Positions 15,145 through 60,212 of a DNA stretch of 64,000 bases are shown here, piece after piece (the first letter of the stretch is position 1; each line of letters starts with the position of its first letter). The stretch covers positions 1 through 64,000 of IMG/VR virus record IMGVR_UViG_3300032326_002451, one strand, 5' to 3'. This stretch comes from a virus. The translations under genes and the position numbers were made by a program. The notes under the pieces were generated by a model that saw only the letters and a list, made by a program, of their open reading frames with translations, was not told the DNA's origin and did not search any database.

Positions 15145-15174
15145 AAAAAAAAGCTACCCAAAACGGGTAGCTTT
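15145..15174 (-). terminator. Intrinsic terminator hairpin with U8 tract
   Basis: On the minus strand AAAGCTACCC-5nt-GGGTAGCTTT, within a run of 8 T. Confidence 0.8.
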
Positions 15175-16387: not shown

Positions 16388-16570
16388 ATGTCATCAGAAA
16401 ATTTGTCAGATGCAGCCACAACTCACCAGATGTATTGCGTAAAATGCAGAACTATGGTCACTATCACTGCTCCTAAAAAAGTTGTTATGAAAAGTAGTAG
16501 ACACGCTTTACAAGGTAAATGCCCTCATTGTTCTATTTCAACATATAAAATTATAGCTAAAACAGAGTAA
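16388..16570 (+). CDS. DUF5679-like small zinc-binding protein
   Basis: MYCVKCR...GKCPHC...YKI; AAGGAG SD. Confidence 0.75.
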   Translation: MSSENLSDAATTHQMYCVKCRTMVTITAPKKVVMKSSRHALQGKCPHCSISTYKIIAKTE

Positions 16571-16573
16571 ATC

Positions 16574-19500
16574 ATGTTCCAAAAAATTTCAGCTACACCT
16601 AAGTTCAAAAATCCATTTAGCAGGACTCCTAAAACTCCAGATACTCCTGACACCCCTGAAACACCAGATCCAAAGAAAGTAAAAGAAACAGATCCATTCA
16701 AATCAGGTGCACAGGCAGCAGCAGCTGCTGCCGGAACTGGTTTGGTTATCAATAAATTCCAATCTTTGGGTGACTCAAAAAATGCCGCTGATCGATTAGT
16801 TGGTAAAGTTCTGGATATGTCTCAGGAACAAGGTAAAAACGCAGACAAACTGGCTGTTGAATTAGGTGAAAGAGAAGTATTAATTTCACAACTTTTAACA
16901 AGTATGCCAGAAGATTTGTTGGCAAAATACTTTGATGAGTTTTTATTTAAGAAAGATATACCTTGGACTGCTACAAGAGAGTTTATGCAAAAAGCAGTAA
17001 ACGCAGAACAACAAGGTGCAGAAGCTGAAGATGTTTTGGATTTTGCTTTAGTATTTTATGATAAAAGAAGAAATTTTGGAAATACAATAACAATTATTGA
17101 CATGGCTTTGGATTTACAGCCTCAAATGAGAAATGTAAATATTTTTAAAGCAATGAAAGGTAGCTTACAAGGCACAAGAGAAGCTGCAATTAGTTTTCTG
17201 CTTATTGGTCCAGAAAATATTGATAAAACTATTGTTCTAAATAAACTATTGGGAATGGTTTTAGCAAGAGGTGCTGAAGATTTAGAAGTTCTTAGAAGAG
17301 AATTTCAATTAAGCAAAGATCAGCTTCAAAGAAAAAGAGAAGTTGGAGACAGATTCAGAGGCATTTATGACGCAATGATGTCTATGGAATTTCAAAGTGC
17401 TTTAAAAAGAAATGTACAGTTCGTAACTGAACAATTTGCCTTGAGCGTTAATGATCCTCAAGTACAATCATTTGCCAAAATTCTATATGATATCAAACTT
17501 GGACAAGAATTTAGAAGTGAAATCTTTGCCTCTCTCGAAGGGAGGCAGACTGCAGAAACTACTCCAGGTTTAGCAGAACAAAGCAGAGTTACCCAAAGAA
17601 GATCAAGTTCAAAAAACAGTAGATTTGTTATTGCGCAAGAAGCACCGAAAAAAGCTCAAACTGTCAACCCAGTGTTTTTAACTAACTTTAGTAAATACCT
17701 TGCAGAACTTATTAAGGTTGCTGAAGTTTTGAAAGTTAGAATTGCCAAGGCAACTGGTAATGATATTCAGATTGCAAACGAAATTAAGGGTTTAGTTACA
17801 ACCGCTTCAGACAGCCTTAAAAATGCTCAAAATAAGATTAGTGTTGCAGATTTCAGCACTGTATTTGCCTTTTACTTAGAAGCATTGAATAAGTTTGAAG
17901 CTGTAAATGTAGTGTTAAAACAAAATCCAGAAAAAACTGCTTCAAATGTAACAAATGCAACAAATTTTAGGTTTGCACAAAACCCAGTCAATAATCCACC
18001 AGGAGTTGCAGTTGGTGTTACTGGTCCAACTTCAGGAGCTGGAGGTGGGAATGGAGAGTTTTTATCAGACGAAGCAAAAAAAATAGCAGATACAGTTTTC
18101 AAAGGAGTAGCTGGTGTAACTGGAGTTGTAGCTTTAGCTACAGGTGATTTCAAGTCTGCGCTTGCAGCTGGTACTGCACTATTTTTGCAGCAAAAAAACA
18201 AAAATGCTCTTGCAATTGCTAACACTGCTGGAATTGAACCTCCAAGAGATTTAACTCCACAATATGTTCTGGATGATGCTGCAGAAGCACTGAAGGCCCT
18301 CGGAGCAAATCTTCAACAACAACAAGAGTTTGTTGCCAATGATCAGTTTATTAAACAAGTTAGTTCAACGATAAATGTCATGGAAAGAAGTTTATTGTTG
18401 GTTATAGATGCACAAGTAAAGACTGCTGATGGAAGTACAGAAACACCACTTGAAAGTCCAGAAAAAGTTGATAAGCTTTACAGAGATTTCATGGCGTATT
18501 TGAGACAGGCAAATGACTATTGTTCAAGGCAGATTGATTTAGTCAACACACTTGCTAAAAATACTAATAATCCAACAGTTCAACAAAAGTTAGGTTCAAT
18601 TAAGCAATACCAAGCAATGGTTCAAGCAAGTGTTGAAGAGATCAGATCTAAAATATCTGAATATGCTTCAATAACAGAAATCATTTCAAATGTACAAAGT
18701 CAGAAATTCTTATTACTTAAAATAAAAGAGCTTATTCCTCAATTAGATAAGTATCTTGCAACAGGATTATCAGTTGCAGATGTGCTTGGTTCTGAAGGTG
18801 GGGTTCTTGGCAAAATCAAGGATTACATAAGTTTTGAAAGAGATAGCTATAATAAACTTTACAAAAAGTGGAGTGAGTTGATAGCTAAGTTTCCTAACCT
18901 TAGATATGACAATGTAACATCCCCTGAAAGACCACCAGTTCAACAAACAGCTAATGTTCCATCTTCTGTTGCACCTAATCAAACTCAAACAGTTAGTGAA
19001 GGTGTAAATGTAGATCAATCTGGCAACATGAGTGAAGGTGGAGATATTCAAGGATATCAAAGATCAGCAAGTGTTCAGTTTTCAAACCTATTGTTTGAGA
19101 AGAAAATTGTAACTTCAGCAACAGATCCTGGACAGCAAGCTAAATATAATTATTATATTACAAAAATGAATCAGCCAGGTATGAACTATCAAAATCTTGT
19201 TAGAGCTTTAGATGGCGATATGACATTTGTAGATGCTAACTTAAAGCTTCTTGCAAGAAATGCTATATTAGCAAAGTCTGTACCACCAATGGCTCAATCT
19301 TTAATCCCACAATATGAGGGAAGTGTTTCAGATGCTCAAGGTAGAAATGTTTCTCCAGGAACTCTTCAAGCTCAACAAGCAGCTCAGACAAATCAACCTG
19401 TAGGACAAACTGCTAACCAAGCAACTCCAGCACCTCCGGCTTCTCAAGCAGGCGCTGGAGTAGGATCTACTGTGCCTGGAAGACAACTCTCTTCTGAAGC

Positions 19501-57736: not shown

Positions 57737-57769
57737 AATGCCCATGATTATCATGGGCATTCTTGTTTT
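57737..57769 (+). terminator. Perfect 25-bp palindrome / intrinsic terminator
   Basis: AATGCCCATGAT-T-ATCATGGGCATT followed by CTTGTTTT. Confidence 0.7.
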
Positions 57770-57770
57770 A

Positions 57771-57788
57771 TGATATAATAAAATTATG
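57771..57788 (+). promoter_or_regulatory. Extended -10 promoter (TGnTATAAT), probably leaderless, for the helicase
   Basis: TGATATAAT, 6 nt, then ATG; no SD. Confidence 0.6.
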
Positions 57789-59594
57789 TTTATTGTTTAT
57801 GTTTACAATGATAAATCAGTGGTATTCAATGACCAACATCCTCAAGGTAAGCTTGAAAACATGTATCAAGAGGCATTGCGATCTGAACTTGCATATGATG
57901 TTCCTGATGCAGAGTGGAGTGCCAAGTTTAAACAAGGTCAATGGGATGGAAAGATTTCCATATACAATAAGCGTGACCAATCATTTCCTACAGGCTTAAC
58001 TAATAAGGTTAAAAAATTATTTGATCTATTGAACATTGACTATAAATTTGTTGATCAAAGACAAAAACCAGATGAGAATTATCCTGTAGATGTAGATTTT
58101 GGTGGCAAAGAGCTTAGAGATTACCAATTGAGTTCTGGTGTGTTGTCAAAAAAGTTTCAGCGAGGCATGTTAGCTTTATGTACTGGAGCTGGAAAAACTA
58201 TGACTTCGTGCCAAATATTTAAGGATTTGGCTGTATCTCCAGTTGTTTTTATTGTTCCAGCCATTGAATTATTGAAACAAACTCAAAAAGAATTTGAAAA
58301 ATATCTTAGGCTTAATGGAAGTCCTGTCAAGGTTGGAATAGCTGGCGGTGGGCTATGCAACATAAATATGCAAGGTATTAATGTTATTACATACCAAACT
58401 GCCTTGAATTCTCATAACAAAAAATATGTTGAACGTGGCAATAAAATTATAGAAGATGAAAGTGGCGATGGTCAATCTAAATCTACAGCCCAGTTGCAAG
58501 CTGAATACGATCTTGCTGAAAAAAACTGGAAGAATAAACATGAACAAGCTAAAAAACAATTAGCAAAAGATTTAGTTGTTATTAAAAATCTCAAGATTGA
58601 TTTGGAAAATGAATCAGATTTACGAAAGAAAAAATCACTTTCTGTATGCTTAACAAATTTAGAGAAAGTATATGAAAAGCAACTTAACACAATAACAAAA
58701 GTTGAACTTACTGCATACAAAAAAGCTCAAGTTGCTTGGGACAAAAGACAAGATACATTATTTCAAAAATCTCTTGTAAGAGAAGTTATATCCAATTGTC
58801 AAGCTTTTATTGTAGACGAAGCTCATGTTGCATCTGTTGTTATAGAAGAATTAGGTAGATATGCTAAAAATGCTTTCTATAAACTTGGACTTTCAGGCAC
58901 TCCATGGAGAACAGATAATCAGGAAATAAGAATTGAAGGCGCTTTAGGTAGAAAAATAATTCAAGTTTCTGCAAGTGATCTTATAGAAAGAGGTTTTCTT
59001 GTTCCTCCAAAGATATTTATATGCAAGATAAACGAACAGCATCATGCAAATACTTATCCTGAAATATATACTTCTAATATAGTAAACAATTGGGAAAGAA
59101 ATTTCAGAATTAAACAATTTTCTGAGCAATTCAAATTAAAAGGAAGGCCGACATTAATTCTTGTTGAAAGAAGAGAGCATGGAGCCATTCTTGAAAGCAT
59201 GATAGAAGATGCAGTTTTCGTGCCTGGAGGAGATAAAGGTGAAGAAGACCCAACAGACGAGGAAAAGAATTACAGAAGACGGATGCTTAATGCTGTGGAA
59301 AACAATGAGATTATCCTCATTGCTACTCAATGGGCTAATGTAGGTGTCGATGCTCCAAGGATCAGTTGCTTAGTTTTGGCTGGCTCTAATCAATCTTCTG
59401 TCACAACATATCAGCAAGTGGGAAGAGTTCTAAGATGTGTTGGTAAAGATATTGAAGAGTCTATTAAAAACGGAAAGCCTGATGCAATCATTTTAGATTT
59501 TTCATCAGACCAGAAGAATTTGAAAACTCATATTAACATGAGAAAAAAAGTATATAGAAATGAAAGAGCTTGGACTTTGACAGAGCTGAAATAA
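57786..59594 (+). CDS. Superfamily 2 DEAH helicase (UvsW/XPB-like) with coiled-coil insertion
   Basis: LRDYQ, TGAGKT, DEAH, SGTP, GVDAP and QQVGRVLR motifs. Confidence 0.9.
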   Translation: MFIVYVYNDKSVVFNDQHPQGKLENMYQEALRSELAYDVPDAEWSAKFKQGQWDGKISIYNKRDQSFPTGLTNKVKKLFDLLNIDYKFVDQRQKPDENYPVDVDFGGKELRDYQLSSGVLSKKFQRGMLALCTGAGKTMTSCQIFKDLAVSPVVFIVPAIELLKQTQKEFEKYLRLNGSPVKVGIAGGGLCNINMQGINVITYQTALNSHNKKYVERGNKIIEDESGDGQSKSTAQLQAEYDLAEKNWKNKHEQAKKQLAKDLVVIKNLKIDLENESDLRKKKSLSVCLTNLEKVYEKQLNTITKVELTAYKKAQVAWDKRQDTLFQKSLVREVISNCQAFIVDEAHVASVVIEELGRYAKNAFYKLGLSGTPWRTDNQEIRIEGALGRKIIQVSASDLIERGFLVPPKIFICKINEQHHANTYPEIYTSNIVNNWERNFRIKQFSEQFKLKGRPTLILVERREHGAILESMIEDAVFVPGGDKGEEDPTDEEKNYRRRMLNAVENNEIILIATQWANVGVDAPRISCLVLAGSNQSSVTTYQQVGRVLRCVGKDIEESIKNGKPDAIILDFSSDQKNLKTHINMRKKVYRNERAWTLTELK

Positions 59595-59614
59595 ACTGCT
59601 CCATTGCAGTTTAT
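59591..59614. terminator. Hairpin between the convergent helicase and small peptide genes
   Basis: ATAAACTGC-tccatt-GCAGTTTAT. Confidence 0.55.
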
Positions 59615-59619
59615 AAAGA

Positions 59620-59691
59620 TTAGAATTCAGCTTTGAATAATGTTACAAAAATAGTGTCGAACAACTTTTCAATATCTTTCAGAATATTCAT
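59620..59691 (-). CDS. Unannotated 23-aa amphipathic peptide MNILKDIEKLFDTIFVTLFKAEF
   Basis: Perfect AAGGAGGT SD 5 nt before ATG; upstream extended -10 and downstream hairpin. Confidence 0.7.
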   Translation of the reverse strand: MNILKDIEKLFDTIFVTLFKAEF

Positions 59692-59704
59692 AGATTACCT
59701 CCTT

Positions 59705-59762
59705 GACAAAATAAAAAACCGCTGACTTAGTTACCATCAGCGGTTTCAATTATATTTTACCA
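59705..59762 (-). promoter_or_regulatory. Extended -10 (TGGTAAAAT) followed by a leader hairpin with U tract
   Basis: Stem AAACCGCTGA/TCAGCGGTTT at 59716-59746 with an 11-nt loop, then TTTATTTT before the SD. Confidence 0.6.
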
Positions 59763-59852
59763 CTTTTCTCATAAATTTCCCTTTTATAGAATGATTTATG
59801 TATATTTTGTCGAATAATATATTACAGCACTATAAAGCTGCGGAGGTGAGTT

Positions 59853-60212
59853 ATGTTCCACCAAACTATCGTTGGCAAGCCAAAACATTGTTTGAATAGA
59901 AATTGTAAAACTCCTTTCTTTAAGGAATCTCATTTAGGATGGTTGCCAAAGTCAGAAGTAGAAGTTTATGCAATCATGAGATGCCCAAAATGCAAAGATA
60001 CATTTGCAGTTGTTCAATTGATATCTATGGCGCATGATTACAAAACTGCTCTACCAAAAGACCCAAGTCAAGTTTCTCCTTCTGGACCTATAACAAAAAA
60101 AGAACTCACGAATTTCAAAAAGAAACTTGATAACAAAGATTCATTAAAAAGTTTATTAGAAGGATACAAACCTGGAGGGTCTGTTATTTCTGAAGACGAC
60201 ACTGACATCTAA
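59853..60212 (+). CDS. Zinc-binding hypothetical protein
   Basis: GGAGGT SD; CLNRNC...CPKC. Confidence 0.7.
   Translation: MFHQTIVGKPKHCLNRNCKTPFFKESHLGWLPKSEVEVYAIMRCPKCKDTFAVVQLISMAHDYKTALPKDPSQVSPSGPITKKELTNFKKKLDNKDSLKSLLEGYKPGGSVISEDDTDI

Follow-up and report, generated by a model that had tools for sequence, protein, structure and literature searches.

We analysed a 64-kb stretch of viral DNA (the window) that forms the start of the 110,315-base-pair (bp) IMG/VR virus record IMGVR_UViG_3300032326_002451, and within it a small minus-strand unit that occupies the 258-bp spacer between two plus-strand genes, one for a UvsW-like helicase and one for a 119-amino-acid (aa) protein. The unit consists of a −10 promoter element, a 5′ stem-loop with a U tract, a Shine-Dalgarno (SD) site, a 23-codon open reading frame (ORF) and a 3′ stem-loop (Table 1). 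A first-pass annotation of the window had described these elements as a complete, stand-alone and tightly regulated gene for an amphipathic peptide, and each of them was found where it had been placed. Comparison with related loci supports that description, and indicates that the unit is a genuine protein-coding micro-gene under purifying selection rather than a chance ORF.

Table 1. Positions of the minus-strand unit, of the genes that flank it and of a coupled gene in a sister lineage (window coordinates unless a locus is named)
Feature	Position	Strand	Family matches or further loci
−10 promoter element TGGTAAAAT, TG-extended in the present phage	59754–59762	−	
5′-terminal stem-loop (59715–59747) plus U tract, whole element	59708–59747	−	
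SD site AAGGAGGT, 5 nt from the ATG	59697–59704	−	
23-codon ORF (stop included), acidic amphipathic helix	59620–59691	−	
3′ stem-loop, then short U-rich run; terminator or 3′ stabiliser of the micro-gene	59591–59614	−	
UvsW-like helicase gene	57786–59594	+	Pfam UvsW_N, ResIII, Helicase_C; PHROG DNA helicase
119-aa ORF, CxxC...CxxC pattern, zinc-ribbon-like, divergent from the 23-codon unit	59853–60212	+	
241–247-aa gene between the peptide ORF and the helicase gene	L002:4799–5530	−	Also L003, L004

Between positions 16574 and 62849, every ORF of at least 90 aa that is not nested in a larger plus-strand ORF is on the plus strand. Relative to this set the 23-codon unit is the sole inverted element, in agreement with the inversion that had been noted at first reading.

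No recognisable −35 element was found upstream of the −10 box. The core of the box (G-TA-t-A-a/c-T) was invariant in 32 aligned relatives that share the leader type of the window (class A), and it lies 7–12 nucleotides (nt) upstream of the hairpin base. The box had been called an extended −10; the TG extension is present in the canonical register in the window but is missing from some relatives, and it is the core that is invariant. A sigma-70 pattern match inside the unit (59709–59681) was discounted because such matches were at chance level (7 found versus 9.3 expected).

In the window the base of the 5′ hairpin is 7 nt past the −10 box. The stem is 10–12 bp long (−16.5 kcal/mol; z score of −4.3 relative to shuffled sequences), and the U tract follows it directly and ends near position 59708. 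With a 12-bp stem, five G-C pairs and a T-rich tail, the hairpin has the form of an intrinsic terminator and is comparable to the gene-end terminators at 15150–15174, 73161–73192 and 78765–78792 of the record. A simple terminator scan missed it solely because its loop is longer than 8 nt. In a second scan that allowed loops of up to 12 nt, it was among the record's few strong hairpin plus T-run sites, the others being at gene ends. This geometry is consistent with the RNA of about 40 nt that the first-pass annotation had expected from early termination. The 3′ hairpin has a 9-bp stem (−10.1 kcal/mol; z score of −3.2), and the stop codon of the helicase gene (59592–59594, plus strand) lies within its 3′ arm.

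We scored the pairing of translation starts with the anti-SD sequence for 71 starts in the 110-kb record, which were 70 ORF starts and the start of the 23-codon ORF. The 23-codon ORF ranked first at −12.5 kcal/mol (median of −3.0), in agreement with the earlier description of its SD as the strongest noticed in the window. The SD core AAGG(A/G)G(G/A) was kept in nearly every class-A relative, with one-base variants in a few. AAGGAGGT occurs once in the window, against a chance expectation of about 1.3 copies for the 8-mer. Taken singly, an 8-mer or a 23-codon ORF in an AT-rich spacer would carry no significance; that of the unit derives from its relatives, through conservation, codon-position statistics and covariation.

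Conservation and coding capacity of the 23-codon ORF

Using the helicase as an anchor, we collected 18 IMG/VR loci at 65–83% identity, and a profile search added loci at 50–61%. All 18 of the loci whose sequence spans the slot, with helicase identities as low as 55%, have a homologous minus-strand ORF of 23 or 24 codons with an SD. Conservation of the ORF and its SD had been proposed as a check on the gene, and the relatives bore it out.

A degenerate DNA pattern built on the C-terminal 16 codons was run on IMG/VR and on a metagenome collection. At least 46 metagenome contigs carry the 23-codon gene. In all 46 among the matches listed, the gene is convergent with the helicase gene and about 100 nt away from it, and it is also divergently oriented to the 119-aa gene in nearly all of the listed contigs that reach that far. 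The IMG/VR matches were the phage's own clade plus chance matches. Four matches outside the clade were chance matches within other ORFs, and a fifth, on two contigs, was set aside as a separate 24-codon ORF of an unrelated contig. This SD-led ORF (L062:3680–3760, plus strand, and L066) lies on viral DNA of higher G+C. Its C-terminal half is acidic and amphipathic and fits the pattern, and the ATG of the next gene overlaps its stop. The resemblance is probably due to convergence or chance.

The 23-codon gene was found in one copy per genome in four large related records, within a clade of uncultured jumbo phages whose related contigs measure 261–358 kb, and no paralogue of the peptide was found in the 110-kb record. 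The gene is absent from a complete, more distant 378-kb genome, whose helicase carries a fused N-terminal extension. When the locus was compared by Megablast with 50,697 records of cultured phages, there was no match, and the helicase relatives in those records reached at most 28% identity. At a locus with 50% helicase identity (L038:4300–4420, minus strand), a different SD-led ORF, of 34 codons, occupies this slot on the same strand; homology to the 23-mer was not detectable, and this ORF could be a diverged homologue or a replacement micro-gene.

Over all loci there were at least 46 distinct ORF sequences and at least 40 distinct peptides. In closely related pairs, which are not independent of one another, synonymous differences per site (pS, 0.33) were about 5-fold more frequent than nonsynonymous differences (pN, 0.06), and differences at codon positions 1, 2 and 3 numbered 34, 16 and 74. 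Column entropy followed the same codon positions (0.86, 0.38 and 1.18). The periodicity was strongest in codons 2–7 (0.89, 0.19 and 1.39), a region that was not constrained by the search pattern. Variation in ORF length was confined to one whole codon (23–24 codons).

In one sister lineage, which has a different leader (class B), the peptide ORF is followed by a gene for a protein of 241–247 aa, which falls in viral DUF8361 clusters in the ESM Atlas. The ATG of this gene is 2 nt past the peptide stop and it has no SD of its own, so it must depend on ribosomes that come directly from translating the small ORF. The coupled gene was also present at the metagenome loci L084, L088, L091, L124, L165 and L194. 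Its product has a weak Pfam match to RgpF (E value of 0.0045), and the AlphaFold model was poor (mean predicted local distance difference test score of 49.8). We consider it highly probable that the 23-codon ORF is translated.

Leader structures in three lineages

Covariation was assessed in an alignment of 32 distinct class-A units. In the two helices, 98.5% of the alignment cells pair, compared with 24–50% in slid controls. The 5′ helix pairs in 99% of cells, with compensatory changes at five pairs, and the 3′ helix in 98%, with compensatory changes at two. The G-U pairs of both hairpins would read as A-C mismatches on the plus strand and thus fit the minus strand only. The compensatory changes and the strand-specific G-U pairs indicate that both hairpins act as minus-strand RNA, and the spacing of the invariant −10 core from the stem indicates that the stem-loop would be the very 5′ end of that RNA.

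Two other origins of the 5′ hairpin were rejected. A dispersed repeat is at odds with its single occurrence in each genome. An ordinary gene-end terminator would belong to an upstream gene on the same strand, and there is no such gene in the window or in any relative; in relatives with a longer spacer, the inserted 435-aa gene is on the strand opposite to the 23-codon unit. The unit matched no Rfam family (top match of 26 bits against a threshold of 59), and we found no alternative fold or antiterminator pairing.

The leaders fall into three classes. Class A, with the terminator-like hairpin, comprises at least 34 distinct units including that of the window. Class B, with at least 11 units, has no U-tract hairpin. 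Instead, a pyrimidine stretch is complementary to the SD, and a 10-nt segment is complementary to the start codon and its flanks. In the predicted consensus fold the SD and start codon are paired, mostly by pairs that are invariant or changed on one side, with one compensatory pair. Class C comprises at least four units from the most distant lineage, in which a 12-nt segment is complementary to the SD core, the UG of the start codon and the next two codons. Its predicted fold has no covariation and an unremarkable energy (z score of about 0), and the 3′ hairpin is replaced by a strong bidirectional terminator. The three leaders are not homologous, and each has a predicted inhibitory fold. From the sequences, then, the predicted brake on expression is one that has been swapped at least twice while the peptide stayed constant, which suggests that it matters to the phage how much of the peptide is made, or when.

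The arrangement in class A recalls lambda PR′-tR′ (6S RNA) and attenuators, in which a terminator lies close to the promoter, a short RNA is the default product and readthrough is regulated. As in PR′-tR′, a constitutive-looking promoter is followed directly by a hairpin resembling an intrinsic terminator. In contrast to PR′-tR′, neither an antiterminator protein site nor an alternative RNA fold is evident, a 23-codon ORF rather than an operon lies downstream, and the hairpin is at the 5′ end of the transcript, where it may equally be a stabiliser. The 5′ hairpin may thus be an attenuator that releases the short RNA, a 5′ stabiliser of the readthrough mRNA, or both.

A terminator-like hairpin at the predicted transcription start, covariation in both hairpins and the overlap of the unit with the helicase stop codon would also fit an RNA as the main product, either the hairpin RNA of about 40 nt or a transcript of about 165 nt antisense to the 3′ end of the helicase mRNA, with the ORF incidental. 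We regard this as extremely unlikely. The ORF has codon periodicity, pS far above pN, indels of whole codons only and a conserved SD and start; moreover, two lineages keep it without the 5′ hairpin, and there is the lack of an Rfam family match.

It is also doubtful that the unit is a cis-acting leader ORF in which translation itself matters and the peptide has no function in trans. In such a case the ribosome could melt the 3′ hairpin and thereby allow antisense transcription into the helicase gene, or it could feed a coupled downstream gene. The coupled DUF8361 gene fits this proposal, as does the position of the 3′ stem, which begins 4–8 nt after the stop and leaves the stop within ribosome reach in all classes; in the present phage, helicase-gene antisense is all that lies downstream. 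However, purifying selection acts on the amino acid sequence and not merely on the frame, and the amphipathic pattern and two invariant residues (E8 and F19) are kept over at least 40 variants. Neither an alternative antiterminator pairing nor a run of regulatory codons was found. The unit also differs from an attenuator leader peptide in that no same-strand gene lies downstream of it in the window or in most relatives, the coupled gene being confined to the DUF8361 lineage.

Properties of the peptide and its candidate roles

Positions 3, 4, 7, 10, 11, 14, 15, 18, 19 and 23 of the peptide are hydrophobic in all members. This spacing of 3 and 4 residues is typical of coiled coils, heptad-like and with a broad apolar face. 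About 57% of the residues in the helix are hydrophobic, and the hydrophobic moment (0.41–0.55) was equalled in 0.2–1.9% of shuffled sequences. Polar positions are conserved alongside the hydrophobic ones: E8 and F19 never vary, E22, L18 and I3 are close to invariant, and position 20 is mostly K, R or N. In 12 representative members the net side-chain charge was −1 to −3, and the longest run without D, E, K, R, N or Q was at most 7 residues; such short runs leave no transmembrane stretch. A HeliQuest-style lipid-binding score, used as a heuristic, was below threshold in every member.

The 23-aa peptide has no signal peptide. It matched no Pfam family at E values up to 1, including the models for phenol-soluble modulins (PSMs) and delta-lysin, and searches of PHROG, NCBIfam, PDB sequences and PADLOC-type toxins gave no meaningful match. 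A 15-residue match to a cohesin SA-1 helix in PDB (E value of 0.003) was taken as chance.

The first-pass annotation had proposed a membrane-active or inhibitory peptide, of the type I toxin or PSM kind or for superinfection exclusion, or a signalling peptide. A membrane-active toxin would be silenced by its leader until a set time and would serve, for example, to depolarise the host, to time lysis or to abort a competing infection, with readthrough helicase mRNA as the antisense. The ORF is small, stand-alone and inverted, the 3′ end of the unit overlaps the convergent helicase transcript, and the peptide has a high hydrophobic moment and hydrophobic content. In addition, the leaders are predicted to end transcription early or to sequester the SD and AUG, like those of type I toxin mRNAs. 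Antisense by readthrough from the helicase gene is plausible, since class A has no plus-strand terminator between that gene and the unit. Against this, the acidic net charge, the short uncharged runs, the subthreshold lipid-binding score and the lack of a match to Pfam, NCBIfam or PADLOC-type toxin families all weaken the case for membrane activity. No dedicated antisense promoter was identified, and conservation is strictly vertical at a single locus of lytic-type jumbo genomes, unlike that of mobile toxin–antitoxin cassettes. A toxin of this kind is possible but on balance unlikely; what still speaks for it is the gating of the leaders and the overlap with the convergent helicase transcript. 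For signalling, neither a signal peptide nor an export partner was found.

In the type I toxin genes of tisB/istR, hok/sok and bsrG/SR4, leader RNA leaves the primary transcript untranslated or terminated. The 23-codon unit resembles them as a very small stand-alone ORF with a restraining leader, here a predicted one, and convergent overlap with another transcript. It also shares with them a small ORF (below about 60 aa) with its own promoter, in this case 23–24 codons with a conserved −10 box. Sequestration of the SD is predicted for leader classes B and C, with little covariation, whereas class A has the terminator-like hairpin instead. The unit differs from type I toxins in that its product is acidic, lacks a transmembrane helix and has no sequence family match. 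Moreover, no separate conserved plus-strand antisense promoter was recognised (class C has its bidirectional terminator), and the gene is kept vertically at one syntenic jumbo-phage site rather than scattered as a mobile cassette. Staphylococcal PSMs and delta-lysin are likewise amphipathic helices of 20–26 residues without a signal peptide. They differ from the 23-aa peptide, which has a negative net charge, matches none of their Pfam models, has no exporter or quorum-control context, and is phage-encoded and probably intracellular.

The reading we favour, with about even confidence, is that the peptide is a tightly gated micro-protein that acts in trans inside the cell, by contact with a protein or by self-association. 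Transcription would start at the base of the terminator-like hairpin and most transcripts would stop as the short RNA. The ORF would be carried only on readthrough transcripts of about 165 nt, capped by the stable 5′ stem-loop, so that the leader would deliberately restrain expression; sister lineages would reach the same outcome through leaders predicted to pair with the SD and AUG. Its action would rely on the hydrophobic face together with a small number of conserved acidic and basic positions. The peptide could self-associate as a small coiled-coil bundle or use that face to dock on a protein of the host or the phage, and it is unlikely to span a membrane. Protein contact is favoured over a generic membrane-lytic or toxin–antitoxin role by the acidic charge, by the conservation of polar positions and by inheritance that is strictly vertical at a single core-genome site. 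In a broad sense, "inhibitory peptide" is still the best guess.

Several points weigh against the role in protein contact or its gating. We infer the promoter of the unit from the conserved −10 box alone. The predicted leader folds of the sister lineages lean mostly on invariant pairs. The 5′ hairpin could be purely a stabiliser; a small hairpin also precedes the SD of at least two further first genes in the genome, namely the 119-aa gene and a zinc-ribbon ORF of 60 aa at 16388–16570. Finally, the charge may not prevent so hydrophobic an amphipathic helix from acting on membranes.

A trans-acting modulator of this kind would have precedents. Lambda CIII is a phage-encoded amphipathic-helix inhibitor of FtsH, and SpoVM of B. 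subtilis is likewise a short amphipathic helix that modulates a host protein. The likeness lies in the short amphipathic helix, the trans modulator role being only proposed here, and in the position of the 23-codon gene among protease and chaperone genes (DnaJ, Hsp70, S26 and trypsin-like peptidases). CIII differs in being 54 aa long and basic, whereas the 23-aa peptide is acidic. Homology to CIII was rejected, as profile comparison (hhalign) gave a probability of 0.15%.

Genomic setting, host ribosomes and wider meaning

The 110-kb record has a G+C content of about 32% and a completeness of 31% by CheckV. The contigs of the relatives found through the helicase span 261–378 kb, which indicates that the present phage is a jumbo phage. 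DnaJ, an S26 peptidase and a trypsin-like peptidase are encoded shortly upstream of the helicase, and the 119-aa gene is followed by genes for Hsp70, a MerC-like protein and a nuclease-domain protein. The zinc-ribbon-like 119-aa protein matched no Pfam or PHROG family and only hypothetical viral clusters in Atlas. Its gene has one of the record's three strongest SDs (−10.8 kcal/mol), with a small hairpin directly before it (59824–59852, plus strand).

Some features near the locus vary among relatives. Four loci (L172, L177, L190 and L154) have an extra opposite-strand gene for a protein of 435–452 aa. It separates the 119-aa gene from the peptide unit, about 1.3 kb upstream of the latter's promoter, and the peptide gene has the same promoter, hairpin and SD there as elsewhere. 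Five others (L007, L009, L012, L013 and L019) have a conserved, near-perfect palindrome with 7-bp arms, of the ATTAAGA..TCTTAAT type, between the peptide promoter and a 123–132-aa gene; it is a candidate operator for both divergent genes. In the window, a strong terminator-like hairpin (57737–57761, plus strand) is followed by TGATATAAT. The last T of TGATATAAT is 6 nt from the helicase ATG, and so the helicase mRNA may be leaderless or nearly so. The 60-aa ORF mentioned above was unlisted, is on the plus strand inside a 251-bp divergent spacer and has two CxxC pairs; it is preceded by a −10-like TGTACAAT box, a small 6-bp hairpin and an AAGGAGA SD, the same promoter–hairpin–SD order as that of the 23-codon gene.

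The genome is poor in SDs, with 5 of the 71 starts pairing with the anti-SD at −8 kcal/mol or better, and the record's strongest SDs belong to the 23-codon gene and a few others, mostly short genes. G is mildly enriched at −13 to −9 before the phage genes, and the host therefore probably uses SDs to some degree. The Hsp70 had one match, at 47% identity, to a Bacteroidetes metagenome-assembled genome, and jumbo phages bearing DnaK/DnaJ have been assigned to Flavobacteriia (PMC12619734). These are thin hints of a Bacteroidota host.

Bacteroidia-type ribosomes hide the anti-SD, or ignore SDs, unless bS21 is missing (PMC7797042, PMC9976891, PMC13000453). If the host is of this type, the peptide might be a readout of ribosome state, made only by the subpopulation of ribosomes that lacks bS21, which would give the phage a switch at the level of translation that does not depend on its transcription programme. 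The proposal draws on the presence of the strongest SD on the 23-codon ORF and of another top-three SD on its divergent neighbour in an SD-poor genome. The enrichment of G at −13 to −9 counts against it, as does the fact that no bS21 gene was found in the present phages, and we consider it very unlikely.

A review describes more than 2 million predicted phage small genes, most of them uncharacterised (PMC11323111). The 23-aa peptide belongs to the same pool but lies below the usual size limits of gene callers, and its coding status is backed by explicit tests of selection and covariation. Genes of 23 codons escape standard gene callers, and the present one passes comparative coding and RNA-structure tests to which few candidates are subjected.

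As judged from sequence comparison, the existence of a new family of phage micro-proteins with unusual leader gating in uncultured jumbo phages is well supported, and its function is one that we infer. The leaders would be compact natural expression gates. If the host is blind to SDs, the locus would bear on specialised ribosomes. The position of the gene beside a recombination helicase gene and chaperone and protease genes may be a lead to its function. The 23-residue peptide itself offers a well-defined and easily synthesised target from uncultured jumbo phages, and its partner would reveal what these phages manipulate in their hosts.

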